Made by a program: the position numbers and the translations under genes
Origin: Anaerolineae bacterium
Lineage (GTDB): Bacteria > Chloroflexota > Anaerolineae > DRVO01
Assembly (NCBI GenBank): GCA_013178015.1
Contig: JABLXR010000031.1
Span: 21,108 to 85,107, forward strand
Length of the DNA stretch: 64,000 bases
Direction of reading: 5' to 3'
Notes under the pieces: model-generated
What the model saw: the letters and a program-made list of their open reading frames with translations, nothing else
Told to the model about the DNA's origin: nothing
Databases searched by the model: none
Shown: in pieces, positions 19,387-34,457 of the stretch
How positions within the stretch are numbered: the stretch's first letter is position 1
Layout of the letters: every line of letters starts with the position of its first letter

Positions 19387-20568
19387 GTGAGCGTGACTGC
19401 AGCAAGCGACCAGCCACCGGGTAGCCCGGCTCTCGAGACCAGAGCGCCTAGCGTCCTGGTCAAGCCTGTGTCCGCCCGGTGCAACCTGGCTTGTCGATAC
19501 TGCTTCTATCGGGACCGGGCGAGCGACCCCTATCGAGGCGTACCGGCCGGAACCATGCCCCGCGAGACGTTGGCTGCCCTCGTGGCCCAGCACCTGCATC
19601 TCTCGGGGCCGGTCGCCGTGTTTGGCTGGCAAGGGGGAGAGCCCACTCTGGCGGGCCTCGACTTCTTCCGCCAAGTAGTGAACTTCCAGGAACGATACGG
19701 CGCCTCCGGTCAGGTAGTGTGCAACGCGCTGCAGACGAACGGTGTGGCGCTGGACGCCGAGTGGGCCCGATTCCTGGCTCGCTACCGGTTCCTGGTTGGT
19801 GTGAGCCTTGACGGCCCTCCAGAAGTGCACGATCGCTGGAGGCCCGGCCACGGTGGGGCGCCCACCTACGAGCGGGTCATGGCCGGCATCTCCATCCTGA
19901 GGCGGTATCGGGTGGAGACAAACATACTGGCGGTCGTGCACTCCGCCAATGCTCACCTCGCGGAGACCACTCTGTCGTTCTTCCACGCCCAAGGCCTGCG
20001 GCACCTCCAGTTCGTGCCGGCCGTGGACCGTCTCCCCGACGGATCCCTGGCGGCACACTCCCTCGCTCCGGCCGCTTACGGCGAATTCCTCTGCCGCCTA
20101 TTTGACGCCTGGTATCAGGACGGCCGCCCGGAGCTCTCCATCCGTCTCTTCGACAATCTGGTGGGTATCGCCGCCGGGCACCCCAGCGAGATGTGCGAGC
20201 TAGCAGCACGTTGCGACAGCTACTACGTGGTAGAGCACAACGGTGACGTGTATCCTTGCGACTTCTTCGTGGACCGGCCCCGCTACCTCGGCAACCTGCT
20301 TCGTGAGCCGGTGACCCAGATCCTGAAGAGCTCCCGCCGCCGAGCGTTCGCCAGCACCAGACAGACGCTGCCCCAGGGGTGCGCCGACTGCGTGTGGCTG
20401 ACCGTGTGCCACGGGGGCTGCCTGCGGTATCGCTTCGCTGGTACGGGCTCCCTCACCGGGGCCAACTGGATGTGCGAGGCCACCATCATGCTGCTCGAAC
20501 ACGCCTGGGAGCGGATCTGCACTCTAGCCGCAGCCATTCCTTCACATGCCAGCTCTCCCCCAGCGTGA
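19387..20568 (+). CDS. radical SAM/SPASM-domain protein (anSME-like maturase family)
   Basis: GTG start. The CNLACRYC (Cx3Cx2C) motif begins at residue about 31. The C-terminal SPASM cysteine cluster reads …CADCVWLTVCHGGCLRY…. Confidence 0.85.
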   Translation: MSVTAASDQPPGSPALETRAPSVLVKPVSARCNLACRYCFYRDRASDPYRGVPAGTMPRETLAALVAQHLHLSGPVAVFGWQGGEPTLAGLDFFRQVVNFQERYGASGQVVCNALQTNGVALDAEWARFLARYRFLVGVSLDGPPEVHDRWRPGHGGAPTYERVMAGISILRRYRVETNILAVVHSANAHLAETTLSFFHAQGLRHLQFVPAVDRLPDGSLAAHSLAPAAYGEFLCRLFDAWYQDGRPELSIRLFDNLVGIAAGHPSEMCELAARCDSYYVVEHNGDVYPCDFFVDRPRYLGNLLREPVTQILKSSRRRAFASTRQTLPQGCADCVWLTVCHGGCLRYRFAGTGSLTGANWMCEATIMLLEHAWERICTLAAAIPSHASSPPA

Positions 20569-20598
20569 GGGAGAGAAACACACCCGGAGGCCTTCCTG

Positions 20599-21534
20599 AT
20601 GCGCATCGTCTTCTTCTCTTACCGCGGCACCATCGGCGCCCGCTGCTTACAGTGGCTCCTGCAGCAGCCACAGGCAGAGGTGCTGGCGGTGGTCACCTGG
20701 CCTGATTACGTTCACCCGGAGATCAAGATCGCCGTCAAGGAGGTGCTCTACGATGCGCACCTTCCCCTCTACCAGCCGCGGGATGTGAACTCGAGTGCCT
20801 TCGTCGCCCTCCTGCATTCGCTCCGGCCGGACCTGTTCGTTTCCATGTACTTCGGCAAGCTCTTCAAGGCCCCGCTCCTTTCCGTCCCACCCCAGGGCTG
20901 TGTCAACATCCACAACTCGCTTCTGCCCCGATACCGAGGCCAGGCGCCCAACATCTGGGCGGTAGCCAACGGGGATACCGTATCCGGCCAGACCATGCAC
21001 TACCTGGATGAGGGGATGGACACTGGAGACATCATCGCCCGCAAAGAGATACCTGTGGACCCCGCCGACACCGGTTACACGCTGGGGGCAAAGCTGGAGG
21101 ACCTGGGGGTAGAGCTCTTCAAGGAGGCGTTCCCCGCCGTGCTGAATGGTACCGCTGGCCGCCAGAAGCAGGACGACTCTCAGGCTACGGTCTGCCGTGC
21201 GCCTCGTCCTCACGATGCTCGCATAGACTGGACCCGTCCAGCTCCGGCCATAGCCAACTTCGTCCGGGCCTTCACCAGGCCGTATATGGGAGCCTTCACC
21301 CGGCTGGGCGGGCTCACAGTCCGGGTCTGGTCCTCACGTCCCGCCCCCGAGCTTCCGTGGCAGGCGGATGCCGCACCGGGCGACGTGGCAGGAGTGGAGG
21401 CCGAGGGACCAATAGTGCGCTGCGGCCAGGGCCACCTCATCCTGACCGACTTTGAGGTAGAGGGCATCCAGGACCGGAGCTCGGCCCTGTCACTGCTTTC
21501 GGCAGGCAGGCGTAGCTGCGCCTCGTTCGCCTGA
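20599..21534 (+). CDS. formyltransferase-family protein (Fmt/ArnA-N-like)
   Basis: The N-terminus MRIVFFSY…, an NIHNSLLPRYRGQAPNIWAV (SLLP/HxSLLPxxRG) motif and an Fmt-like C-terminal domain are present over 311 aa. Confidence 0.8.
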   Translation: MRIVFFSYRGTIGARCLQWLLQQPQAEVLAVVTWPDYVHPEIKIAVKEVLYDAHLPLYQPRDVNSSAFVALLHSLRPDLFVSMYFGKLFKAPLLSVPPQGCVNIHNSLLPRYRGQAPNIWAVANGDTVSGQTMHYLDEGMDTGDIIARKEIPVDPADTGYTLGAKLEDLGVELFKEAFPAVLNGTAGRQKQDDSQATVCRAPRPHDARIDWTRPAPAIANFVRAFTRPYMGAFTRLGGLTVRVWSSRPAPELPWQADAAPGDVAGVEAEGPIVRCGQGHLILTDFEVEGIQDRSSALSLLSAGRRSCASFA

Positions 21535-21682
21535 GCCCATCGGGCGAAGGATGGCACGGCGATCCGCCTCTTCTGCCCGCCCAACCTCTCGATGGCTTTC
21601 CCTGTGGCTGTGACCCCTCGCCCGTCCCTACAGCCTGGCCAGCGTTGCCCAGAAGCGTCCGCCCCCTCATAACTGCGTCAAG

Positions 21683-21741
21683 TTGCCGGATCCGGCAAAA
21701 AAGTCTGCCGGATCCGGCAATCAGATTTGCCGGATCCGACA
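21683..21741. promoter_or_regulatory. three tandem palindromic operator-like sites TTGCCG-GATC-CGGCAA (ComA-box-like 6-N4-6 geometry)
   Basis: A perfect 16-bp palindrome at 21683-21698 with near-copies at 21706-21720 and 21727-21741, spaced about 22-23 bp apart and lying in an intergenic region. The half-site TGCCGGA recurs at 22454-22488. Confidence 0.6.
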
Positions 21742-21920
21742 TGACGAACCCTGCCTCAAGCCCGGTATCATACACCTGCGGTGGAAGCAAGGCCGTTGCC
21801 GTGGACCGCGGCGACACTGCCGCCAGGGAGGGGAGCCGACCACCTCCAGACTCGCACGGCGGCGGAGGGCCGGGCCTGCGACAGCTTCCGCCATATCTGG
21901 CCAGAGGTGGAGAGGTACCG

Positions 21921-22244
21921 GTGACCGCTCAGAATGGTACAAGGGCACTGGTGTATATTCGGGTGTCCTCGGGCTTCGGCGTGGACGGCCAGCGGGAACG
22001 CTGCCTCAGAGAGGCGATGCGTGCCGGCTGGAGGGTGGAAGCTGGTGACGTGTACATAGACGTAGGGACGGAGGGCGGCCGCGCCTGGCGAGCCCTGCGA
22101 CGGCGGCTTCTGGACGACCAGTCCGTAGCGGCCGTGATCGCCCAGGATCAGACTCGGGTGAGCCAGCAGCGCGACGTCTGGCTCGCCATCGCCGCCGAGC
22201 TGCGCGACCTGGGCGTCGAGCTGCGCACTCCTAGTGCCAGTTGA
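21921..22244 (+). pseudogene. truncated serine recombinase (resolvase catalytic domain only, no DNA-binding domain)
   Basis: A GTG start follows GGAGAGG. The sequence ALVYIRVSSGFGVDGQRERCLREAMRAGW… matches the resolvase N-terminal catalytic-Ser motif. It spans only about 107 aa and lacks the C-terminal HTH. Confidence 0.5.
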
Positions 22245-22423
22245 CCCCTCATCCGGGTACGACGGCCACGGCCAGGGCGTCTCGGGCGGCTGAGCACCCA
22301 TCCCGCACGGGCGCCAGCGGGGCCGCCTGGTCCCTGGCTGGACCCTGTCGGACTCGGACAGGGGCAGAAAGACAGGCCAGGCCGAGGGGAGGCCAACTCG
22401 GACATTGCCGGGTATTGCTTGAT

Positions 22424-22453
22424 TTGACGTGTAATGGAAATCAGCTCTAGTAT
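22424..22453 (+). promoter_or_regulatory. candidate sigma70-type promoter for the precursor operon (TTGACG-N18-TAGTAT)
   Basis: An AT-rich island stands out in a GC-rich background about 170 nt upstream of the precursor ATG. It is followed by the split palindrome CTGCCGGA-N19-TCCGGCAG. Confidence 0.4.
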
Positions 22454-22620
22454 CTGCCGGAAGTGCGAAAGTGGTACCTATCCGGCAGCCAGGCTTGGTG
22501 GGTCCGGCACGGCCGCGGAAGCGGCGGTGGCGCGCTCTGATCGCCGGGGCAGGTAGTGGGGCGGCATACCTTGCCTCCGGAAGGTTACGGCGCCGCTCTG
22601 GAAGCGCTCAGGAGGTCCGT

Positions 22621-22911
22621 ATGAATCATCTGGCCCGCGCTGTACACGACGCACTCTCAGGCAAGAGGTCCATTGATCAGCTCACTGAGACCGAGGCGTT
22701 GGCCCTCGAGGAGTCGCTCAGAAGCCTCGGGCGAGCCCGGGGCTCTGTGGGTCCCCAGGAGGCCTGGGCCGTGTCGCCAATGGCCCAAGCCGGACCGGGC
22801 CCCCAAGAAGCCTGGGCCGTGTCCCCTATGGCTGAGGCCGGTCCGGGCCCTCAGGAGGCCTGGGCCGTATCGCCAGCAAGCAAGACGGACCCCAGCGCCG
22901 GGGAACTCTAA
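22621..22911 (+). CDS. ComX-like precursor peptide with three tandem 16-aa Trp-containing repeats
   Basis: AGGAGG lies 5 nt before the ATG at 22621. The 43-aa leader is followed by GPQEAWAVSPMAQAGP / GPQEAWAVSPMAEAGP / GPQEAWAVSPASKTDPSAGEL, encoded by 48-bp repeats at 22750-22908 that carry synonymous differences. The ORF from 22471 is an over-extension. Confidence 0.6.
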   Translation: MNHLARAVHDALSGKRSIDQLTETEALALEESLRSLGRARGSVGPQEAWAVSPMAQAGPGPQEAWAVSPMAEAGPGPQEAWAVSPASKTDPSAGEL

Positions 22912-23101
22912 GCCGGTTCGGCCGTCGAGGAGCCAATCACACGCCTTGCCTGAGCTGGCAGGTTCTGTTCCCACGACTGCCGCGCCGGACCCGGGGTCTG
23001 CAGGCCACCTAGAAGGCTTCCGTGCCAGAGCCCGTGCCCTGATCGGAGGTTGCCTCAGCGAGGCGGGCGTCGAGCAAGCCTGTGCCCGGCAGATCAGCGA
23101 C

Positions 23102-23968
23102 ATGGTGGCCAGTTGGTTGGATCAGAGCCGGCATCACCAGGGCATACTAGACCTGCCAGCTCTCGTCTGCTGGGCCGCAGGGGGCGACCCCGTCCAGGCG
23201 GCGCCGGCCGGCGCCGCCTGGTGGCTCATGCGGTTTGCTGCCAAGCTCTTCGACGATGTAGAGGACGGCGACCTGTCCCACGGGCTTCCGGAGGCGGTGA
23301 ATCTGGCTTCTGCTGCCCTGATGGCTGCCCAGGCGCTCATCTTGGGCTCGGCCTGGCCAGCCCCGGCTGGCCCTACCGCTGTCGGCCTCGAGTTCGCCCG
23401 CGCCTGCCTCGTAGCTGCCGGGGGGCAGCATCTGGACCTGGCGGTCGCGAGCGGCCAGGCACACATTGACCCGGACCTCTGGCTCTCCATGGCCCAGGGC
23501 AAGTCGGGCTCGCTCCTGGGCTGGGCCGCGTGGGCCGGAGCCGTGGCCGCAGGGGTAGACCCTGCCCTCGCCTGCCACTTCCGTGACTACGGCAGATGGC
23601 TCGGCGTCCTGGTGCAGATTGCCGACGATTACGCCGATACGTGGAGCCCGACCTCTCCGGCCGACCATGGCTTCCGCGGCTCCTCGTTGGCGCTCGCTTA
23701 CGGACATCTGGTCTCCGATGGCGACACGAGGGCGGAGCTCGAGCTGTGGCTGAAGAGAGCCAGGGATGGCGATTGCTGCGCCGCTGAGCTCCTGCGCCGG
23801 AAGCTTGCTTCCCTCGGTGCGCCGGCCTTCCTCGTGGTGGCGGCCAGGGATTGCCGGGAGCGAGCGACGCGTGAGCTCAGGAAGACAGGCTGCCAGGCAA
23901 GTCGCGGTGCTCCCCTGCTGGGCCTCCTGGGACACCCGCTGAGATCGGTCGAGCAGGCGGGGGTGTGA
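23102..23968 (+). CDS. polyprenyl synthase-like isoprenoid transferase (ComQ-like)
   Basis: Two DDxxD motifs are present (AAKLFDDVEDGD and LVQIADDYADTW, the latter in an FQxxDDxxD-like context). The stop lies 4 nt before the kinase start. The start is uncertain: the first in-frame ATG is at 23102 and an upstream TTG at about 22947 is an alternative. The 22673 ORF start overlaps the precursor and is rejected. Confidence 0.65.
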   Translation: MVASWLDQSRHHQGILDLPALVCWAAGGDPVQAAPAGAAWWLMRFAAKLFDDVEDGDLSHGLPEAVNLASAALMAAQALILGSAWPAPAGPTAVGLEFARACLVAAGGQHLDLAVASGQAHIDPDLWLSMAQGKSGSLLGWAAWAGAVAAGVDPALACHFRDYGRWLGVLVQIADDYADTWSPTSPADHGFRGSSLALAYGHLVSDGDTRAELELWLKRARDGDCCAAELLRRKLASLGAPAFLVVAARDCRERATRELRKTGCQASRGAPLLGLLGHPLRSVEQAGV

Positions 23969-23972
23969 CGTC

Positions 23973-26231
23973 ATGGACTTTGCGCCGACCACACAGCTCT
24001 CCCGGAGTTCTCGTGCATCGGCCCTGAGCGCCCTGCACATCGTCCTGATAGTTGCCTGCGCCCTCCTCGTCCTCTGGGCCGCCTCGGCGGCAGTTGGTCG
24101 GTCCTGCAGGCACGGCGGAGGCACCGCCCCCTTCCACGGAGGGGCCTGTCCTTCTTTGGCCGAGGACCTGGCGCCGTTAGCGGTCGCCCTCGGACTGGCG
24201 ATGATAGCCTGGCGACTGCGACACCTGCCCCAACCCTCTCCCTTCCTCACCTTCATAGGCTTCTCGATTGCAGTGGCCTCCGGCAAGCTCGGGCTGCTCG
24301 GCAGCGATGTGGGCATGAGGCTGTACTTCATCTCGCTGGCGGGGGCAGCACCAGCTTTCTTCCTCCTTCATCACCGCCTGCTCGGGGAGCCGTTGGGGCG
24401 CCGTTCCCGGAGGGTCCTCGCGGCGCTCCTCGGCCTGGCCCTGGGGCTCGCCCTGCCGCCGGCTCTGGCCTCCTTCGCCGTCCTGGCAGAGCAGCCCTGG
24501 TACTCCCTGTGGCGGGGAATGGTCCGCCTGTCGGCGGCCTTGTCTGTGTTGGTGTCCGGAGCCTGGCTGGTGTTCTCCTGGAGGCGGGACTGGCCCGAGG
24601 TGAAGCTGCGACCCCTGCGTCTGGTAACCTATGGCAACATCGTCGCCTTCGCCCCTCTGGTGTTGCTGTCCATGCTGCCCGACACCTTTCACAGCCCAGT
24701 CTACGTGCCCTACGAGATCACCCTCTTTGGCTCCCTCCTGAGCCCGCTCTGCTACTCCCACGCTTTCACTATGACCGGTGCCCCGGGGCACGGGGTCCGC
24801 CTGCGGTTCCTTTCTGTCTACCTGATGCTGGCCGTCCTGCTCACCTTCGTCCTCCTGGTGGCAATGGCCGCTTTCACTGTCGCTGGCCTGCCAGTAGGTC
24901 AGGCCTGGGCGATCGCTCTGCTGGTCGCTTCGGCTGCCATCGTTGCCGTCGGGCCGAGCACAAGGCGGTGGTTCACCGGCCTGTCCGAGTGGACCTGGTT
25001 CGGTCGCGGCCCTGGGTACGACCAGATCCTGGATCGCCTGTCCGAGACTCTTTCCACCACCTTGGACCAGGAGCGTCTGCGCCGCATGCTGGTTTCCGAG
25101 CTCGTTCGGGAGTTAGGCCTCTCCGGCGCCGCTCTGTTCCTCAAAGACAGCACCGGTCACCTGCGTCTGGTCGAGGCCGTGGGGTCGATGCACCTGGAGA
25201 ATGCTGACCTGGCTGTCCCCGTGGATGGCCCCCTGGTGGAGCATCTCTCCACCCACCCACGCCCCGTCACCCAAGACGGACTGCGGCAGGCACTTGCCTC
25301 ACACAGCCTTGGCATGGCGGAGCGGTTCCTGCTGGCCATGGAACCGCCTCTCTGGGTGCCGCTCGTCTCGGGGGGCGAGGCGTACGGCCTTCTGCTGGTA
25401 GGTCCCAAGACCGATGCCGACTTCTTCACCCCTGATGACGTGCGCCTTCTGACACTGCTGGGCTACCGCGCCGGGGTGGCAGCACACAATGTGCTGCTTA
25501 TGAAAGAGCTGCGCCGCAGCCACGAGCAGCTTTCCCGGGCTCACCAGCGCCTCCTCGATGCCGTCGAGCAAGAGAGGCGACGCCTTGCCCACGAGCTGCA
25601 CGACGGAGCAGTGCAGCAACTCCTCGCCGTCACCTACCACGTCGCCCACTACCGGCACACCCTTGCCGATGACGGCGGCGAGCAGAGCTCGGCCGTGCAG
25701 GCGGCTTCCGAGGCGCTAGACTCGCTCCGGCAGGAGCTGCTAGCAGTGGTTACCCAGCTGCGGTCCAGCATCAGCGGCTTGCGCCCGGCCGGGCTGGACG
25801 ACTTGGGCCTGGCGGCGGCGCTGGCCGGCTACGTGTCCCGACTGGAACAGGAGCATCTGGGCCGCATGCCCGAGATTGAGCTGGACCTGGATGAGGGTTC
25901 GGCTCGGCTGCCCTCTCGCGTGTCCCTCTGTCTGTTTCGAGTGGCCCAGGAGGCCCTGCGCAACGCCATCAGGCATTCGAGAGCCGATTTTGTGCGTGTC
26001 AGGCTGAGGGTGGAGGCCGAGCGCGTTCACCTCCTGGTGAGTGACGACGGACAAGGTTTCGTCGTACCCGAGCGCCTGAGCCAGCTGACCGGCGAGGGTC
26101 ACTTCGGCTTGCTCAGCATCTCGGAGCGCGTCTCCCTGTTGCCGGGCAAGTTGACCATTCGCTCCCGTCCTGACTACGGAACGGAGATCTCTGTTGATGT
26201 TGACCTCAGCGAGGTAGACCCCAGTGATTGA
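23973..26231 (+). CDS. multi-TM sensor histidine kinase, HisKA_3/HATPase (ComP-like architecture, with GAF domain)
   Basis: About 8-10 N-terminal TM helices and a GAF-like region. The H-box LAHELHDGAVQQLLAV is of HisKA_3 type (NarX/DegS/ComP type), and a C-terminal ATPase domain follows. The protein is 752 aa. Confidence 0.85.
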   Translation: MDFAPTTQLSRSSRASALSALHIVLIVACALLVLWAASAAVGRSCRHGGGTAPFHGGACPSLAEDLAPLAVALGLAMIAWRLRHLPQPSPFLTFIGFSIAVASGKLGLLGSDVGMRLYFISLAGAAPAFFLLHHRLLGEPLGRRSRRVLAALLGLALGLALPPALASFAVLAEQPWYSLWRGMVRLSAALSVLVSGAWLVFSWRRDWPEVKLRPLRLVTYGNIVAFAPLVLLSMLPDTFHSPVYVPYEITLFGSLLSPLCYSHAFTMTGAPGHGVRLRFLSVYLMLAVLLTFVLLVAMAAFTVAGLPVGQAWAIALLVASAAIVAVGPSTRRWFTGLSEWTWFGRGPGYDQILDRLSETLSTTLDQERLRRMLVSELVRELGLSGAALFLKDSTGHLRLVEAVGSMHLENADLAVPVDGPLVEHLSTHPRPVTQDGLRQALASHSLGMAERFLLAMEPPLWVPLVSGGEAYGLLLVGPKTDADFFTPDDVRLLTLLGYRAGVAAHNVLLMKELRRSHEQLSRAHQRLLDAVEQERRRLAHELHDGAVQQLLAVTYHVAHYRHTLADDGGEQSSAVQAASEALDSLRQELLAVVTQLRSSISGLRPAGLDDLGLAAALAGYVSRLEQEHLGRMPEIELDLDEGSARLPSRVSLCLFRVAQEALRNAIRHSRADFVRVRLRVEAERVHLLVSDDGQGFVVPERLSQLTGEGHFGLLSISERVSLLPGKLTIRSRPDYGTEISVDVDLSEVDPSD

Positions 26232-26913
26232 TCGGCGAATCAGAGTGCTCTTGGCTGATGACCACCCCTTCATGCGCGCTGGCATCCGAGCCACGCCGGC
26301 AAGCGAAGGGGACGTCAGCGTGGTAGGCGAGGCCAGCAACGCCGATGAAGCGCTGCAGCTGGCGATGCAGCTCAAGCCCGATGTGCTCCTCCTGGACCTG
26401 CACATGCCCGGGTCTCCGGCAGGGTCCGTGGTTGAGGAACTGAAGCGCCGTTGCCCGAACGTCCGGGTGTTGGTGCTCACCGCCTACGACGACGACGTCT
26501 ACGTACAGGGCATGCTGGCGCTAGGTGTAGCGGGGTACGTCCTCAAGGACGAAGTGCCTGAAGCACTCGTCCGAGCCTTGCGGGCCGTCTACCGGGGCGA
26601 CACGTGGTTCAGCACCCGCGCCCTGAACGCGTTGGCCCGCAGCCGGCAGGCCTACATGCCCCAGGACGGGCAGGGCCTCTTCACTGAGAGAGAGCTCGAG
26701 ATATTGCGCTTGATGATGGTAGGCAAGACGGACCGAGAGATTGCGGACGAGCTAGTCTGCGCGGAGAGGACCGTCCGGTATCACTTGCGCGGCATCTTCG
26801 GCAAGCTGGGCGTAGACAGCAGGGTGGAAGCGGCGGTGCGCGCCGCCCAGCTGAACCTCGGCGGCCGGGAGGGCACTGCTTCGGACTCGAGCGCCGGCCA
26901 ATCGCCCTCGTAG
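26224..26913 (+). CDS. NarL/LuxR-family response regulator (ComA-like)
   Basis: The GTG start overlaps the kinase stop (GTGA). The receiver domain (VLLADDHP…LLLDLHMPG) is followed by the LuxR HTH (TERELEILRLMMVGKTDREIADELVCAERTVRYHL). Confidence 0.9.
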   Translation: MIDRRIRVLLADDHPFMRAGIRATPASEGDVSVVGEASNADEALQLAMQLKPDVLLLDLHMPGSPAGSVVEELKRRCPNVRVLVLTAYDDDVYVQGMLALGVAGYVLKDEVPEALVRALRAVYRGDTWFSTRALNALARSRQAYMPQDGQGLFTERELEILRLMMVGKTDREIADELVCAERTVRYHLRGIFGKLGVDSRVEAAVRAAQLNLGGREGTASDSSAGQSPS

Positions 26914-26917
26914 CCGG

Positions 26918-28150
26918 TCACCCCGCCCCCACGCGAGCCTGCGCTACGGGAGCTAGGCCCAGGCAGCAGGCCCGGTACTGCTCCACGGCCTCGGCTGAGC
27001 GCAGGGAAACCGCGCTCCCTTGAGCGTGCAGGATATCCAGCTCAGGGAAGCATGACCGGTGCAGATAGTAGGCGTACTCCACTAGTTCCAGGGGGCCGTA
27101 GGCCCTCAGGGGCTGACCCGGTAGCTGCACGCAGGCCACGCACTTGCCCGCCTTCACCGCTGCCAGCACGGCTTCACTGCTACGCTCTCGAGCGAACGCC
27201 ACAGTCCAATACTGGCCCAAGGTGTGTTCCACCCCATGGGTGTCCGAGTTGCCCACGACGGGCAGCGACACCCCAGCCCTTAGCAGCTCCATGTGCAGGG
27301 CTATGGCGAGCAAGTTGTCCTCGAACTCCACCTCACCCAGCAGTTCGATCGCGTCCACCTCGCCATCGAGGCACAACCGCCGGCCCACCTCTCGATCCAG
27401 GTGGAACTCGCCCCCTGTCACCCAGAACGGGTGCGCCAAGATGGCCAAGCCGCCCAACTCCCGGATACTGCGAGCCGCCCACAGCGCCCGCGCATACCGC
27501 GCGGCGAGGTCGTCAGCGCAGCCCAGATGTCGCAGGTCTTCTTCGATCTCCGCCAACTGACGGCGATGCTCAGGCCTCTCCCGCAGTTCCGATATCCCCG
27601 CCCGGGTGCCCACTGCCACCAGGTGACCGCGCTCGAAGGTGACCTCCTCGCCCGGTATGACCACGATGGGCAGGGCCTCCCCCAGGGAGGCGGCCTCCGC
27701 GCCACCGTTCCAGTTGTCATGGTCGGTGACGGCCACGAAGTCCAAGCCTGCTGCCCAGGCCGCTCTGAGAAGCTCGGCAGGCGAGGACCGGCCGTCAGAG
27801 TACCAGGTGTGGGTGTGCAGATCTCCTCTCAGAGGCAGCAACCCCGCTAGGCCCGGCTCCACCGCGAACAGGGTTCCTACCCGGTGGCGGCGCCCTCCCG
27901 GAAACTCTAACGTGAGCCCCACCTCGCCAGCGAAGCGGGGAGCGTACCGGAAGCGCACCCGCCCGTCAGGCCCTCGTGCCGCTGCGGCTGTCGCCGGGCT
28001 CGAGGGCCACACCTTGGGATGGAGCTCACACCGGTAGTCACCCTCAGGCAGCCGGTCGTCGACAGCCCTGGGCGCGATAGTGAACTCGGTCTCCCGCCCC
28101 GTCGGCGCCACCAACGGGTAGACGCGCAGATGCACCAGCTCAGGCTCCAC
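26918..28150 (-). CDS. PHP-domain metal-dependent phosphoesterase
   Basis: The PHP motif is DLHTHTWYSDGRSSPAELLRAAWAAGLDFVAVTDHD. The GTG start at 28150 follows GGAGGGG and lies just after the xylulokinase stop at 28162. The ORF extending to 28453 overlaps the upstream gene. Confidence 0.7.
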   Translation of the reverse strand: MEPELVHLRVYPLVAPTGRETEFTIAPRAVDDRLPEGDYRCELHPKVWPSSPATAAAARGPDGRVRFRYAPRFAGEVGLTLEFPGGRRHRVGTLFAVEPGLAGLLPLRGDLHTHTWYSDGRSSPAELLRAAWAAGLDFVAVTDHDNWNGGAEAASLGEALPIVVIPGEEVTFERGHLVAVGTRAGISELRERPEHRRQLAEIEEDLRHLGCADDLAARYARALWAARSIRELGGLAILAHPFWVTGGEFHLDREVGRRLCLDGEVDAIELLGEVEFEDNLLAIALHMELLRAGVSLPVVGNSDTHGVEHTLGQYWTVAFARERSSEAVLAAVKAGKCVACVQLPGQPLRAYGPLELVEYAYYLHRSCFPELDILHAQGSAVSLRSAEAVEQYRACCLGLAPVAQARVGAG

Positions 28151-30949: not shown

Positions 30950-31531
30950 CTAGCCGGTGAAGAACGGGAACTCGGTGTCGTCCCAGTAGGTGTTGTTGTC
31001 CTCCAGGTACTCCAGACTTCGCTGCAGCCACTGGTGATGACGGTTCTCCTCCTCCATCAGGAGGCGATAGGCAGCTCGAGCGTTGGGGTCGTCGGCCCGT
31101 TCGTAGGCATCCCGATAGAGGGCGAATCCGCGTTCTTCTGCCTTGAGGGCCAGTTCCAGCGCTTCGCGGTCGCCCGACCCGGCGTGAAGACCAGGGATCA
31201 CCCGGCTCGGATCCGGGAAGAGCCGCTCCTCGGGTATGGCAGCCCCAGGCACGTCGCCAGGGGAAACCTTGAACTGCTCAATCGGGGGAACAGAGGCGGC
31301 CTTGGCCTTCTCCACACTGATCCACCCACCGCCATCGAGCAGACTCTGATACTCGCCCGCTAGGACACGGTAGTGCTCCTCTTCGTCATGGGCCAAGCCC
31401 AGAAACATGCGCCGACCCATCTCGTCCCGCACGTGATGGGCAATCGCGAGGTAGTAGCGTCTACCTTCCTGCTCGTTGATGATCGCGTACGCCAGCGCTG
31501 CCAGCGCCGCCGCGTTCGATGCTGAGGACAT
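30950..31531 (-). CDS. ferritin-like/rubrerythrin-like domain protein (no obvious encapsulin targeting tag)
   Basis: Two E…EEH-type helix pairs (…DEMGRRMFLGLAHDEEEHY… and …EEENRHHQWL…) are separated by a Pro-rich linker. The gene is immediately downstream of the encapsulin gene. Confidence 0.55.
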   Translation of the reverse strand: MSSASNAAALAALAYAIINEQEGRRYYLAIAHHVRDEMGRRMFLGLAHDEEEHYRVLAGEYQSLLDGGGWISVEKAKAASVPPIEQFKVSPGDVPGAAIPEERLFPDPSRVIPGLHAGSGDREALELALKAEERGFALYRDAYERADDPNARAAYRLLMEEENRHHQWLQRSLEYLEDNNTYWDDTEFPFFTG

Positions 31532-31583: not shown

Positions 31584-32417
31584 TCACTCCAGAACGCAGA
31601 TTCCCTCGGGGCGCCGTATCCGCAGCGCCAGGGTCTCCAGCACCCGGAAGGGATGGTTCAGTTCCTCCGGGCCCTTGTAGGCGACCTGAATATCGCCGCC
31701 GATGGCCAGGTCCAAGACGTCAGGGCCGGATGAGACCAGAGCGCCTGTGCCGGCATCCAGAATGGGGCTCTGGAAGACCCCCGCCTCGGCCACCGACTTG
31801 ATAAGCTCCAGCTCCAGCCTACCTCCGTGCCCGAGAATGCGCAGGAGCTTGGTGTACAAGTCGGGCGCGAGCACCAGAGCGTACGGGCCCATGGCGGCGT
31901 TGGCCACCAATAGCGAGCGGGCCTGTGCCACCGCCGCCAGCCCACTTCCCGGCTCCTCCCAGCCAGCCTCGATCGCCACCGTCACGTGTCCGGGAACCCT
32001 CATGATTCCGGGGTTGTCGTCCGTGCCGTAGAACACCAGTCGGTCCTCCGCGCGGGCGAGCATCGCCCCCGCGGCTGCTCCGGCAGAGACGTCCAGGGGA
32101 GCGTGCAGGTCCCGCGCCGTGGCGATGTCCCGCCACGTGAGCCGAAAGTCCTTGTACAGCATCTCCAGCGCCAGCAGGCGCCTCTCCGTGGGCACGACCT
32201 CGTCGGTCTCCTCTTCGCCATAGGTGCCCATGGTGCCCGGGCTCACGCCCTTGACCTTGTCCACCCACACGGCCTGCACTCCCAGGCCCAGAGGCCCGTA
32301 CAGGCTGATGAACCGCCTCCCTACCAGGTTCGCCCGGGCGGCCTGCATCACGGCAGAATCAATCTGCTCCCACTCCTGGTCGCTCAAGGGAGCGTCCTGT
32401 CGCAACAACAACTCCAT
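31584..32417 (-). CDS. family 1 encapsulin nanocompartment shell protein (linocin M18-like, HK97 fold)
   Basis: The N-terminus MELLLRQDAPLSDQEWEQIDSAVMQAARANLVGRRFISLYGPLGLG aligns with the T. maritima encapsulin start ([20 protein letters not shown]…GRKF…GP.G). The protein is 277 aa with GGAGG upstream. Confidence 0.85.
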   Translation of the reverse strand: MELLLRQDAPLSDQEWEQIDSAVMQAARANLVGRRFISLYGPLGLGVQAVWVDKVKGVSPGTMGTYGEEETDEVVPTERRLLALEMLYKDFRLTWRDIATARDLHAPLDVSAGAAAGAMLARAEDRLVFYGTDDNPGIMRVPGHVTVAIEAGWEEPGSGLAAVAQARSLLVANAAMGPYALVLAPDLYTKLLRILGHGGRLELELIKSVAEAGVFQSPILDAGTGALVSSGPDVLDLAIGGDIQVAYKGPEELNHPFRVLETLALRIRRPEGICVLE

Positions 32418-32487: not shown

Positions 32488-33573
32488 TTACCTAGACTTG
32501 AGGCTACCTACCGTGAATCCGGGCGCAGTGCGCCCAGAGGCGGGCCTCCCCTCCGCCGAGCTCAAGTCGGGCGCGGCGTCCGCCCTCTCCGCCGGTGTCC
32601 CGGTGCGGGCGTCGGCAACCGAGGCCGAATCCTTGCCGGATCCACGCTCCTTCGCCGGCTGAGTACGGCCCAGGCCCGGCCGCTGCGAGGCCGGATCATT
32701 CTCCCGCACTCGCCCCAGCATCAGGTCGAACATGTGAATGTGGAACTCCTCGTTCTCCCGGGCTCGGTCCAGGGTCTCCACCAGCTCGGCTTGATCCTCG
32801 TCGTTGCGCAAGCGGTCAGCGTATTCGGCGTAGGTAGCGGCCACGCTCTTCTCGGCCTCCAAATCCGCTCCCAGCATGTCCCCGGTGGCTTCCCCCTTGT
32901 GCACCAAGCCACGCGCAAACAGGGGGAAGTGACCCGACTCAGCAGCCAGTTCGCCAAACCAGCCCAGGTGCTGCATCTCATTGATAGAGATGGTCTCCAG
33001 CTCTCGGCTCGCTTCGTAGTCCGGGGTGACGAAGGAGTGGAACAGGTACTGGAGGATGACCGTGTATTCGTGCTGGGTAGCGTAGTCTAGCACTCTGGCT
33101 ACCTCAGCCGCCAAGCCCTCGCCCTGGTAGATCCCGGCGGGCTTCCCTTCGAGCTCGCCTCCCGGACCGAACTTCTCGCGGAAAGAAGTGAAGACCTCCA
33201 GGTGAGCACGCTCGTCCGTCAGGATGCGATCAATGAGGGCGACGATCTTAGGGTCGTCAATGGCCTTCTTGTGAGCCTCGTACTGAGCGATGGCGTCCTC
33301 TTCGGCCCGGATGTCCCTCGCCATCCATTCGAGTGGGGCCTTGCCGCCTAGCTCCATCTCGGTGCGGTCCAGAATGGGCTCCCCGCCCAGCTGGGTGATG
33401 GCCTGCGCCAGCCACTTGAAGTGGCGCATCTCATCCCGCGCTGTCTGTTCTATCTCGGCCGCCTCTTCCCCCTCCCCCAGCAGGTAGGCGTGCTGCAGGT
33501 AGAGAATGATGGCTCCGTGTTCATCACGCATGTCGTCGTACAGCATCTTGATGATCTCGTTCTTCGCTGCCAT
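32488..33573 (-). CDS. tandem ferritin-like (rubrerythrin/Bfr-like) encapsulin cargo protein with C-terminal targeting peptide
   Basis: The ATG at 33573 follows AGGAGGG. Two diiron-type ferritin-like repeats (…AYLLGEGEEAAEIEQTARDEMRHFKWL… and …YLFHSFVTPDYEASRELETISINEMQHLGWF…) are followed by a disordered tail ending …APGFTVGSLKSR, which matches the family-1 cargo-loading consensus (TVGSLK). Confidence 0.7.
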   Translation of the reverse strand: MAAKNEIIKMLYDDMRDEHGAIILYLQHAYLLGEGEEAAEIEQTARDEMRHFKWLAQAITQLGGEPILDRTEMELGGKAPLEWMARDIRAEEDAIAQYEAHKKAIDDPKIVALIDRILTDERAHLEVFTSFREKFGPGGELEGKPAGIYQGEGLAAEVARVLDYATQHEYTVILQYLFHSFVTPDYEASRELETISINEMQHLGWFGELAAESGHFPLFARGLVHKGEATGDMLGADLEAEKSVAATYAEYADRLRNDEDQAELVETLDRARENEEFHIHMFDLMLGRVRENDPASQRPGLGRTQPAKERGSGKDSASVADARTGTPAERADAAPDLSSAEGRPASGRTAPGFTVGSLKSR

Positions 33574-33584
33574 TCGCCACCCTC

Positions 33585-34457
33585 CTAACACTGATCGGAT
33601 CTGATCCGCAACCACGTATGCCAGAGCAGTACTGCGTCCTGATCGTTTGTCGGACTCTCGCAGATCACGCGCCCCGACACGCGCAGGCGCGCGAGAACGC
33701 CCAGGAGCCCCCTGTAGTTGAGGTCCGACTCCGGCAGAGGCACATGCCTGATTTCCCCTCGGGCGCCATACTCAATGCCGCTGACGTGTATGTGGACGTC
33801 CTGCAGGGCCTCGCTCCCCAGCGCCTGCCCCATGCGCTGCAGCACCTGCTCAAACTCGTCCTCCGTGTTCATCAGTCCTTGCCTGGCGTGCAAGTGCGCG
33901 AAGTCCAGGCAAGGTCTGACGCCGGGCACATCTTGCGCCAGCCGGAGCAGTTCGTCAAGGTCTCCGAACTGAGCCTGCTTGCCAGTCGTCTCCGGGCGCA
34001 GGCAAATGTGGACTCCCTCCTCTCGCAAGATGTGCGACATCTCAGCAACGTGCGACCGCACCACTTGGTACACGCGCTCAGGTGCGTCGTCGTGCCTCCA
34101 TCCGGCGTGGAACACGACCGTGTCGGCACCACAGAGATACCCGACCCGAGCGGCCTGCAACACCCGGTAGCGACTGGCCTTGACCTTGTCCGCCGACGGG
34201 GAGTTCAGGTTGATGTAGTAGGACGCATGGGCGCTGAGGGCCACGTCCAGCCGATGTGCCTGGGCCTGTACATCCGGTGCCTGATCCGGCCGCACGTTCA
34301 CCCGGTGCACGAAAGCCAGCTCCATGGCCTGCAGGCCAAGCCGCCGCACCTCAGCGATGCCATCCAGGTGGCTGGCTCCACTTAGGCTTCGAGGGACACC
34401 GGCGGTGCCGAAGCGCAGAGGCGCCCCGCATCCGGAGCGCTCCGCTGCCCCTGTCAT
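33585..34457 (-). CDS. nfo: endonuclease IV-like (AP endonuclease family 2, TIM barrel)
   Basis: HASYYINLNSPSADKVKASR resembles the Nfo HAPYLINLG region, with metal-binding H/D/E positions. The ATG at 34457 follows the upstream stop at 34471. The ORF extending to 34685 is an over-extension. Confidence 0.7.
   Translation of the reverse strand: MTGAAERSGCGAPLRFGTAGVPRSLSGASHLDGIAEVRRLGLQAMELAFVHRVNVRPDQAPDVQAQAHRLDVALSAHASYYINLNSPSADKVKASRYRVLQAARVGYLCGADTVVFHAGWRHDDAPERVYQVVRSHVAEMSHILREEGVHICLRPETTGKQAQFGDLDELLRLAQDVPGVRPCLDFAHLHARQGLMNTEDEFEQVLQRMGQALGSEALQDVHIHVSGIEYGARGEIRHVPLPESDLNYRGLLGVLARLRVSGRVICESPTNDQDAVLLWHTWLRIRSDQC

Follow-up and report, generated by a model that had tools for sequence, protein, structure and literature searches.

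Four adjacent genes on the same strand make up the comQXPA locus found in Bacillus subtilis, and they encode an isoprenyl-transferase-like protein (ComQ), a short peptide (ComX), a sensor histidine kinase (ComP) and a response regulator (ComA) (Dogsa et al. 2014, PMC4008528). Enzymes of the ComQ family catalyze C3 prenylation and cyclization of a peptide tryptophan (Okada; PMC5331326; bioRxiv 10.64898/2026.08.29.745113), and a census published in 2014 recovered comQXPA-like loci in Firmicutes only (PMC4008528). Here we describe a locus with the same four kinds of genes, likewise adjacent and on one strand, in a metagenome-assembled genome (MAG) of an Anaerolineae bacterium of the phylum Chloroflexota. 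It occupies 22621-26913 (+ strand) of a 64,000-nucleotide stretch of DNA (assembly GCA_013178015.1, contig JABLXR010000031.1, positions 21,108 to 85,107), which was analysed as a whole and is called the window hereafter. On balance, this module is probably a peptide-pheromone cassette that follows the logic of ComQXPA through its full mechanism.

ComQ-type chemistry has already been carried beyond Bacillus by two other systems, so that the suggestion of an undescribed family of ComX-type pheromones, made in a preliminary description of the window, can be upheld only in part. In PalP-PalX-PalQ of Paenibacillus alvei (Miyata et al. 2023, PMC10853753), a kinase, a precursor and a trans-isoprenyl diphosphate synthase (trans-IDS)-like Trp prenyltransferase are clustered as in the window, with the precursor gene first, and the leader of PalX enhances modification. 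However, the leader of PalX is of the NHLP type, whereas the precursor in the window fits no NCBIfam model; PalQ is strict for a terminal Trp and belongs to its own Firmicutes sequence cluster, whereas the cores in the window are internal; and no response regulator is listed for the Pal three-gene cluster. The second system comes from the same phylum as the window: StheQ of Sphaerobacter thermophilus (Chloroflexi) attaches a farnesyl group in vitro to the Trp of StheX, which is encoded next to it (bioRxiv 10.64898/2026.08.29.745113, Aug 2026). Here too an enzyme of the isoprenyl diphosphate synthase (IPPS) fold stands beside a Trp-bearing peptide, of about 70 aa in this case, whose leader is ordered and whose C-terminal core is disordered, but the stheX gene is downstream of stheQ and StheX has a single core with a C-terminal WW. 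The preprint mentions a kinase or regulator 0 times and leaves the biological role open. Finally, the indole prenyltransferases Ord1/XiaM (PMC12510300; PDB 9V4G) share the IPPS fold and a Gln before a DDxxA second motif; unlike the window enzyme, they have free indole or small molecules of the Trp type as substrates, in pathways to indolosesquiterpenes, and neither a peptide precursor nor a two-component system accompanies them. In what follows, ComQ, StheQ and PalQ are set against the window enzyme by their published descriptions rather than by sequence.

The module and its relatives

The module opens with the precursor gene (X; 22621-22911, +; 96 aa), which has the Shine-Dalgarno sequence AGGAGG 5 nt upstream of its ATG. 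It is followed by the gene for the modifier (Q; 22946-23968, +), a 340-aa protein with a trans-isoprenyl diphosphate synthase fold, and by those for a 752-aa sensor histidine kinase (P; 23973-26231, +) and a 229-aa NarL/LuxR-type response regulator (A; 26224-26913, +). Precursor and modifier genes lie 34 nt apart, modifier and kinase genes 4 nt, and the genes of kinase and regulator share 8 nt (GTGATTGA); overlap of these two genes is also seen in ComQXPA. The G+C content of the window is about 65%. The preliminary description had recognized four co-directional, tightly coupled genes, with that of a 96-aa precursor (leader and repeated, Trp-bearing C-terminal region) ahead of that of the modifier, a 752-aa multi-transmembrane HisKA_3 kinase, a NarL-family regulator and a Chloroflexota-type host, all of which hold. 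It was also right about the 4-nt gap between modifier and kinase, but read the overlap that follows as a 4-nt GTGA.

Close homologs of the modifier were rare in a word-indexed search, which recovered six; each is encoded between a small open reading frame (ORF) with a leader homologous to that of the precursor and genes for a kinase with GAF and HisKA_3 domains and a REC+GerE regulator. Scanning a single genome for each GTDB species yielded 56 loci, which were then compared by ORF and hidden Markov model (HMM) analysis. In 15 related loci, whose modifiers range from 62% down to 36% identity, the flanking genes bear no relation to those of the window (L005 has a Ser/Thr kinase there and L006 fucosidases, for example). 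The leader-homologous small ORF is nevertheless directly upstream of the modifier in all but L015, where it is truncated, and L017, where the contig ends; downstream, wherever the contig extends, come a kinase whose sensor is homologous and, after it, a REC+GerE regulator. The regulator follows the kinase in nine of the nine clade-A loci (defined below) with sufficient contig, and precursor, modifier, kinase and regulator are the only genes common to the loci of that clade. As this four-gene set recurs amid unrelated flanks, it is not a product of chance, and the adjacent Trp-bearing precursor is retained in the relatives, as the preliminary description had anticipated.

The family falls into two major clades. 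Clade A comprises the window and L001-L018, with the order X-Q-P-A on one strand and a transmembrane (TM) sensor of the window type in the kinases. Clade B (L021-L063; 20-30% identity) is larger and has the order kinase (-), precursor (+), modifier (+) and regulator (-); its partners are HisKA_3/HATPase_c kinases, some with GAF domains, and REC+GerE regulators. The clade-B precursors are about 50 aa long with the leader MQxF[HY]xxL...LTR, and each of the 26 unique ones (26/26) has a WxxW motif within its last 25 residues, Trp making up 8.5% of the tail as against 1.6% of the leader. A third type of precursor, with the leader ..TIEEFNxLL.., also ends in WxxW. In L033 (995-2952) and L048 (5872-7849) tandem paralogs of the modifier stand behind one WxxW precursor, and in L048 a 1339-aa kinase and a regulator come next.

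As many as 54 of the 56 loci come from genomes named as Chloroflexota or subordinate taxa, namely Anaerolineae, Herpetosiphonaceae, Ardenticatenaceae, Caldilineaceae and Litorilinea. The two exceptions are a Streptomyces locus with generic-synthase motifs (L064) and a contig binned as Sideroxydans (L043). When 1.84 billion cluster representatives (50% identity) were searched exhaustively with HMMER, 898 matches reached E<=1e-30, almost all of them from Chloroflexota; the best 150 of these, at 222 bits or more, divide by motif into about 130 clade-B-like, 19 clade-A-like and 2 ND-type sequences. No Sphaerobacter protein appeared in a profile search of a 5.8-billion-protein set, in which 8000 word-sharing candidates were scored and which is no census. 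Among the high-scoring members, P0053 (a Thermoanaerobaculia MAG) and L043 lie in non-Chloroflexota bins, and their placement could reflect either horizontal transfer or mis-binning.

Precursor peptides and their variable cores

The window precursor consists of MNHLARAVHDALSGKRSIDQLTETEALALEESLRSLGRARGSV followed by three tandem units of GPQEAWAVSP, with one Trp each, at a spacing of 16 residues (22750-22779, 22798-22827 and 22846-22875, +). Tandem Repeats Finder (TRF) reports the array as a 48-bp period with 2.6 copies and 81% DNA identity. In the AlphaFold2 (AF2) model, helices at residues 3-13 and 23-42 have predicted local distance difference test (pLDDT) values of 78-88 and the rest about 50; the peptide is thus divided into a helical leader (residues 1-42) and a disordered three-core region, the layout of helical leader and disordered core reported for StheX in the preprint. 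The leader pattern MNxLAxxVhD...L[ST]xxExxAL is kept in at least ten homologs, every one of them directly upstream of a modifier, and across nine aligned precursors M1, A5, L21, L29 and the Trp are invariant. Searches with the precursor matched neither PF05952 (ComX) in Pfam (E<=0.1) nor any NCBIfam model; a weak hit to DUF6459 (16 bits, cut-off 27) was disregarded.

Apart from the Trp, the clade-A cores are hypervariable: EAWAVSP, QPWMTA/QPWMAA, PNWPAP, Q[DN]WLSAP, EIWLSP, SEWWSNP, [SK]GWT[LI]G and QEWPVAP have all been found. Copy number varies as well. The EAWAVSP core occurs in 1, 3 or 4 copies and QPWMTA/QPWMAA in 2; the GPQEAWAVSP form is single in L010 and present in 3-4 copies in L001/L004, while single-core precursors are the majority in the family. 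The peptide sequence of each core copy is under selection, because over nine codons the three window cores differ from one another by 12 synonymous and 0 non-synonymous changes and encode an identical peptide. Purifying selection on the window cores is thus evident.

Three side observations concern the clade-A precursors. Modifier P0002 is identical on contigs of different metagenomes, yet the precursor has four cores in L001 (5638-5982) and three in L004 (1373-1669; also in L003), which points to a number of pheromone repeats that is polymorphic within a single population or species. In L015 (5625-5735) a leader can be recognized at the start of the ORF upstream of the modifier (MNLLAYVVYSLMTG...), but this ORF ends after 36 aa and lacks a core with Trp; frameshift or decay of a precursor, or an error in the assembly, may explain it. 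A single-core clade-A precursor of 72 aa, P0014, with the core GPMQNWLSAPKA, was found on 62 contigs from several sources (the longest 284 kb), so its host is evidently abundant.

These properties of the precursor bear on the alternative that the modifier acts on a small molecule or lipid, which would be the true signal, or as a cyclase-type enzyme, the small ORF being a chaperone, a regulator or a partner of the kinase. Ord1, with the same fold, does prenylate free indole, and canonical DDxxD has been said to be unsuited to Trp prenylation of the ComQ type (PMC5331326). Yet in more than 40 loci, representing three precursor types, the variable C-terminal part has no invariant residue other than the Trp, and a conserved leader joined to a variable core is the signature of a substrate of ribosomally synthesized and post-translationally modified peptide (RiPP) pathways. 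Moreover, the repeated cores are under purifying selection, and both StheQ and PalQ bind and modify neighboring peptides. We therefore hold a non-peptide substrate to be distinctly unlikely.

The modifier enzyme

Three sources agree that the modifier starts at TTG 22946: the AF2 model, the alignment of the family and the public gene model HPY83_12960, of 340 aa, which it matches with 100% identity and coverage. The preliminary description had it start at ATG 23102, which would cost the protein two conserved N-terminal helices, but its claim of a synthase fold with two DDxxD motifs stands. The protein scores 41 bits against PF00348 (polyprenyl_synt; cut-off 27), and its AF2 model (pLDDT 86) is an all-α IPPS fold with the first helix at residues 19-39. 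Foldseek aligns this model to many polyprenyl synthases and to Ord1 with TM-scores of 0.7-0.8 at about 20% identity; Ord1 itself, at about 0.7 and 20-23% identity, ranked no higher than ordinary synthases. Sequence and fold searches of the PDB returned generic synthases and Ord1 only.

In common with farnesyl, geranylgeranyl and octaprenyl diphosphate synthases, the enzyme has, besides the fold, both DDxxD motifs, GQxxD and the Lys of KT/KS: it retains DDVED (103-107), GQxxD, K186-S and Q224-xx-DDYAD (227-231). Within the family DDVED is invariant and Q224-I-A-D227-D228 is invariant or nearly so; the Gln is also present in canonical synthases. The intact first Asp-rich motif and the match to PF00348 are shared with ComQ, and DDVED corresponds to the first Asp-rich motif expected of the ComQ family (DExxD in StheQ). 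The spacing from Lys to Gln is 38 in both StheQ (K174-Q212) and the window enzyme (K186-Q224), and the spacings from the first motif to the Lys and from the Gln to the second motif are similar. When the family was aligned with five generic synthases, GGK[RA]xRP was found to be replaced by xLPxLxC, RRG/RRxRP after the first motif by DGDLSHGLPE, and the GKP loop to be deleted. We take the basic residues of GGKRxRP, RRxRP and GKP to be the contacts to the diphosphate of isopentenyl diphosphate (IPP), in keeping with established IPPS enzymology. With the donor motifs kept and these basic residues lost, donor binding looks intact and the IPP site, where the elongation substrate would sit, looks rebuilt, as far as sequence can tell.

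This combination sets the modifier apart from an ordinary chain-elongating polyprenyl diphosphate synthase lying by chance beside an unrelated two-component system and a spurious ORF. Such an explanation would account for the PF00348 match, for both DDxxD motifs, for polyprenyl synthases being the nearest structures and for the annotations of 'polyprenyl synthetase family protein' or 'geranylgeranyl pyrophosphate synthase'. It is hardly credible in view of several lines of evidence. Scores against the NCBIfam synthase equivalogs are 13-41 bits, far under the curated cut-offs of 275-600, and residues kept in every aligned generic synthase, those of GGKRxRP, RRxRP and the GKP loop, are lost. A family profile separates cleanly the members (157-424 bits) from generic synthases (at most 104 bits); grouping with bona fide farnesyl diphosphate (FPP) or geranylgeranyl diphosphate (GGPP) synthases, an outcome that the preliminary description had raised against itself, is therefore not seen. 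In place of an isoprenoid pathway, the partners are a peptide and a two-component system, no isoprenoid genes co-located with the module having been found. The small ORF, for its part, has a Shine-Dalgarno sequence, a conserved leader and selection on its cores, and its linkage with kinase and regulator is kept across dozens of species.

The top NCBIfam match of the modifier is the encapsulin-cargo model NF041169, at 59 bits against a cut-off of 450. A family 2 encapsulin cargo polyprenyl transferase was rejected because of this score and because the encapsulin 5 kb away is of the Linocin_M18 type with ferritin-like neighbors, with none near the module relatives. That shell gene (31584-32417) is accompanied by genes for a ferritin-like/rubrerythrin protein (32488-33615) and a rubrerythrin-domain protein (30950-31531), all on the - strand. 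Together they look like an iron-storage or oxidative-stress nanocompartment unrelated to the module.

All characterized trans-IDS-like peptide prenyltransferases act on Trp, and the Gln upstream of the second Asp-rich motif, along with the first Asp of that motif, helps indole recognition (2026 review, PMC13290415). The window enzyme shares with the broad class of trans-IDS-like peptide Trp prenyltransferases (ComQ, PalQ, ChrPC-P; PMC13290415) the IPPS fold, the upstream Gln and, in more than 40 loci, an adjacent Trp-bearing precursor. Hence the modifier is most likely a Trp prenyltransferase, and the database labels of GGPP or octaprenyl synthase for members of this family are probably wrong.

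Sensing, setting and significance

The first 335 residues of the kinase form about 9-10 TM segments with short connecting loops in a hydropathy scan, and are followed by GAF_2 (366-503), HisKA_3 (534-607, 38 bits) and HATPase_c (654-745, 44 bits) domains. ComP likewise has PF07730 and PF02518 behind multiple TM helices in a protein of about 750 aa. The modeled ComP of B. amyloliquefaciens (763 aa; 10 TM helices, a cytoplasmic α/β 'Part 1' at 388-543, HisKA and HATPase; PMC9620489) is co-linear with the window kinase, in which its 85-aa extracellular loop between TM1 and TM2 is missing. With an α/β domain of ComP at the matching position, the GAF domain, which the preliminary description had correctly noted, is probably not the extra module for which it was taken. 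The regulator combines Response_reg (PF00072, 73 bits) with GerE (PF00196, 63 bits), the ComA architecture, and at 229 aa it falls within the range of about 196-245 aa used to define ComA (PMC4008528); its matches to NarL/MadR-like models of NCBIfam stay under the equivalog cut-offs.

Homologs of the TM sensor domain were found solely in clade-A kinases downstream of a modifier. Over seven complete clade-A loci, mean pairwise identity falls from the regulator (0.56) through the dimerization and catalytic (DHp/CA) part of the kinase (0.51), the GAF domain (0.42), the modifier (0.41) and the TM sensor (0.37) to the leader (0.35). This gradient fits co-evolution of a ligand with its receptor, and it reproduces the order ComA > ComP > ComQ > ComX described for ComQXPA.

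From these observations we infer a course of events, extending from prenylation and its chain length and regiochemistry through processing and export to the peptide as kinase ligand and its regulon, which would be as follows. The synthase-fold enzyme would bind the 96-aa precursor via the helical leader, and its two Asp-rich motifs would hold an allylic prenyl diphosphate, presumably a geranyl or farnesyl one. With the basic residues gone at the IPP site, the enzyme would carry out no chain elongation but move the prenyl group onto the indole ring of the one Trp that each GPQEAWAVSP core contains. Proteolysis on both sides would cut out the cores, giving up to three identical lipidated peptides per precursor, which would be exported and accumulate outside the cell. 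There they would be sensed in the membrane by the approximately 10-TM domain of the HisKA_3 kinase, and the kinase would phosphorylate the NarL-type regulator and so alter transcription.

Several observations weigh against such a pheromone cassette, the foremost being the second Asp-rich motif. ComQ requires NDxxx or GDxxx in this region, its N-to-D mutants have almost no activity, and DDxxD has been termed unsuitable for Trp prenylation (PMC5331326); the loss of activity is 90-98% in N-to-D mutants of ComQ/StheQ (PMC5331326; bioRxiv 10.64898/2026.08.29.745113). StheQ thus combines DExxD with an NDxxD pseudo-second motif, whose N215D mutant loses 98% of activity, whereas the window enzyme combines DDVED with DDYAD, and DD is found in 149 of the 152 family members examined. 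Chemistry of the ComQ type can therefore not be taken for granted. Furthermore, the link to ComQ, ComX and the ComP sensor amounts in our comparisons to similarity at the level of superfamily or domain. The Trp residues of the window precursor are internal, at least 15 residues from the C-terminus (the last one 15). Beside the clade-A modules no conserved gene for a protease, exporter, immunity or further tailoring function was detected. Upstream of the promoter there is no conserved regulator-binding palindrome, only GC-rich chance palindromes, none of them kept in L001 or L010. As regards the motif, the DDxxA of Ord1 implies that DD is compatible with indole prenylation. The modifier should not be filed as a member of the ComQ family, and its regiochemistry and metal use may differ.

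An ND second motif was seen in only two of the 152 members, P0030 (L065 1389-5842) and P0188 (from a MAG named as Dehalococcoidales), both with QxxND and the LPxxxC motif of the family. In L065 a 68-aa precursor ending in ...MMIDPMIMWP lies before the enzyme P0030, and a 1067-aa PAS/HisKA/HATPase/REC hybrid kinase lies after it. These two proteins may bridge the DD-type Chloroflexota family and ND-type enzymes.

A further point against signaling is the presence of several cores in one precursor, a feature met more typically among natural-product RiPPs than among the bacterial pheromones known. The module could then make a prenylated RiPP natural product, such as an antimicrobial or a surfactant lipopeptide, the kinase and regulator serving only for expression control or for sensing and immunity in the producer. 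Tandem cores, in 3-4 copies, are usual in high-output RiPP pathways, and PalP-PalX-PalQ has been described as a RiPP cluster, not as quorum sensing (PMC10853753). Nevertheless, only four genes are conserved, without those of a transporter, protease, immunity or tailoring function, the TM sensor is about as variable as the modifier and the leader, as for a ligand-receptor pair, and most family members have a single core. For these reasons a natural product as the purpose of the module seems to us rather unlikely, although the two roles are not mutually exclusive and can coexist.

Measured against the definition of the Bacillus system, the proposed pheromone cassette is ComQXPA-like in the sense that it would work like it, a reading that our comparisons support, while strict membership fails on three counts. 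The window and all its clade-A relatives have the order X-Q-P-A, and Bacillus has Q-X-P-A. ComX has 52-73 aa, belongs to PF05952 or is hypothetical and has its Trp within the last 5-10 residues (PMC4008528), whereas the window precursor, a short peptide too and one with an essential Trp in its variable part, has 96 aa and three internal Trp. The third is the second motif, where DDYAD stands in place of NDxxx or GDxxx.

A sigma-70-like promoter at 22424-22453 (+; TTGACG, an 18-nt spacer and TAGTAT) lies about 165 nt upstream of the precursor ATG. It is the sole promoter-like match within 21500-27600, where 0.3 would be expected from shuffles, and its -35 hexamer coincides with the start given to the module in the preliminary description (22424). 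Both hexamers are kept in L001, the relative with 62% identity, in an upstream region that is otherwise poorly conserved. Elsewhere in the window, neither another copy of the module nor a precursor of the clade-B type was found.

Just upstream of the module (19387-21534, +) are genes for a radical SAM/SPASM protein and then an Fmt/ArnA-like formyltransferase, also present in L001 (2312-4443) and L003 (1-1754). The radical SAM protein exceeds the cut-off for an anaerobic sulfatase maturase (TIGR03942, 370 bits versus 349) and also resembles peptide maturases of the DynA/DarE type. The pair was considered and rejected as part of the module: as its synteny is limited to the closest relative (L001/L003) and it is missing from L005, L006 and L012-L018, it probably lies outside. 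The radical SAM protein may nonetheless have a role in further modification of the Trp peptide. Directly upstream of the precursor, an ORF at 21645-22244 (+) encodes the N-terminal catalytic domain of a serine recombinase alone (Resolvase, 33 bits), with counterparts in L001 (4719-5033) and L010 (1379-1759). It is confined to exactly the three lineages with the GPQEAWAVSP core and could be a mobile-element remnant or an accessory gene; a 116-aa hypothetical ORF comes next in L001, L003 and L004. The genes at 19387-26913, of which the radical SAM gene is the first and that of the response regulator the last, form a + strand island, while most of the large ORFs on either side (about 3.3-19.3 kb and 26.9-35.4 kb) have the - orientation. 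The GC skew is positive in 22001-24000 only (+0.046 versus about -0.1 elsewhere), where the G+C content also reaches its maximum of 0.686. The island and the skew are compatible with an inserted segment.

Full-text searches for ComQ with Chloroflexota led to nothing beyond the systems already named, and the literature searched did not yield a two-component-coupled cassette in Chloroflexota, the size and spread of the family, a tandem precursor of variable copy number or a canonical second motif. It gave no description of cell-to-cell signaling in Anaerolineae or other filamentous Chloroflexota either. Tentatively, and with somewhat less than even confidence, we suggest that the module represents a phylum-wide family of Trp-lipidated pheromones of Chloroflexota. 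Its enzymes would have stayed nearer than ComQ to chain-elongating synthases, or be derived from them, and in the lineage of the window a precursor would carry three or four identical copies of the pheromone, in a number that varies within populations. As the canonical second Asp-rich motif is kept, the prenylation chemistry may differ from that of ComQ. To our knowledge, no other bacterial pheromone precursor has tandem identical copies; the α-factor precursors of yeast are a eukaryotic analog.

If the pheromone cassette is borne out, it would supply the receptor and regulator missing from the StheQ/StheX preprint. The family comprises hundreds of IPPS-fold enzymes with DDxxD that apparently act on an internal Trp of a peptide, which would both challenge the NDxxx rule and widen the toolbox for peptide lipidation. 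Filamentous Chloroflexota, including Anaerolineae, are the dominant bacteria of activated sludge, anaerobic digesters, mats and sediments, and they are difficult to grow in culture. A cassette with a predictable ligand, whose core can be read from the genome, would provide a directly testable handle on their social behavior.

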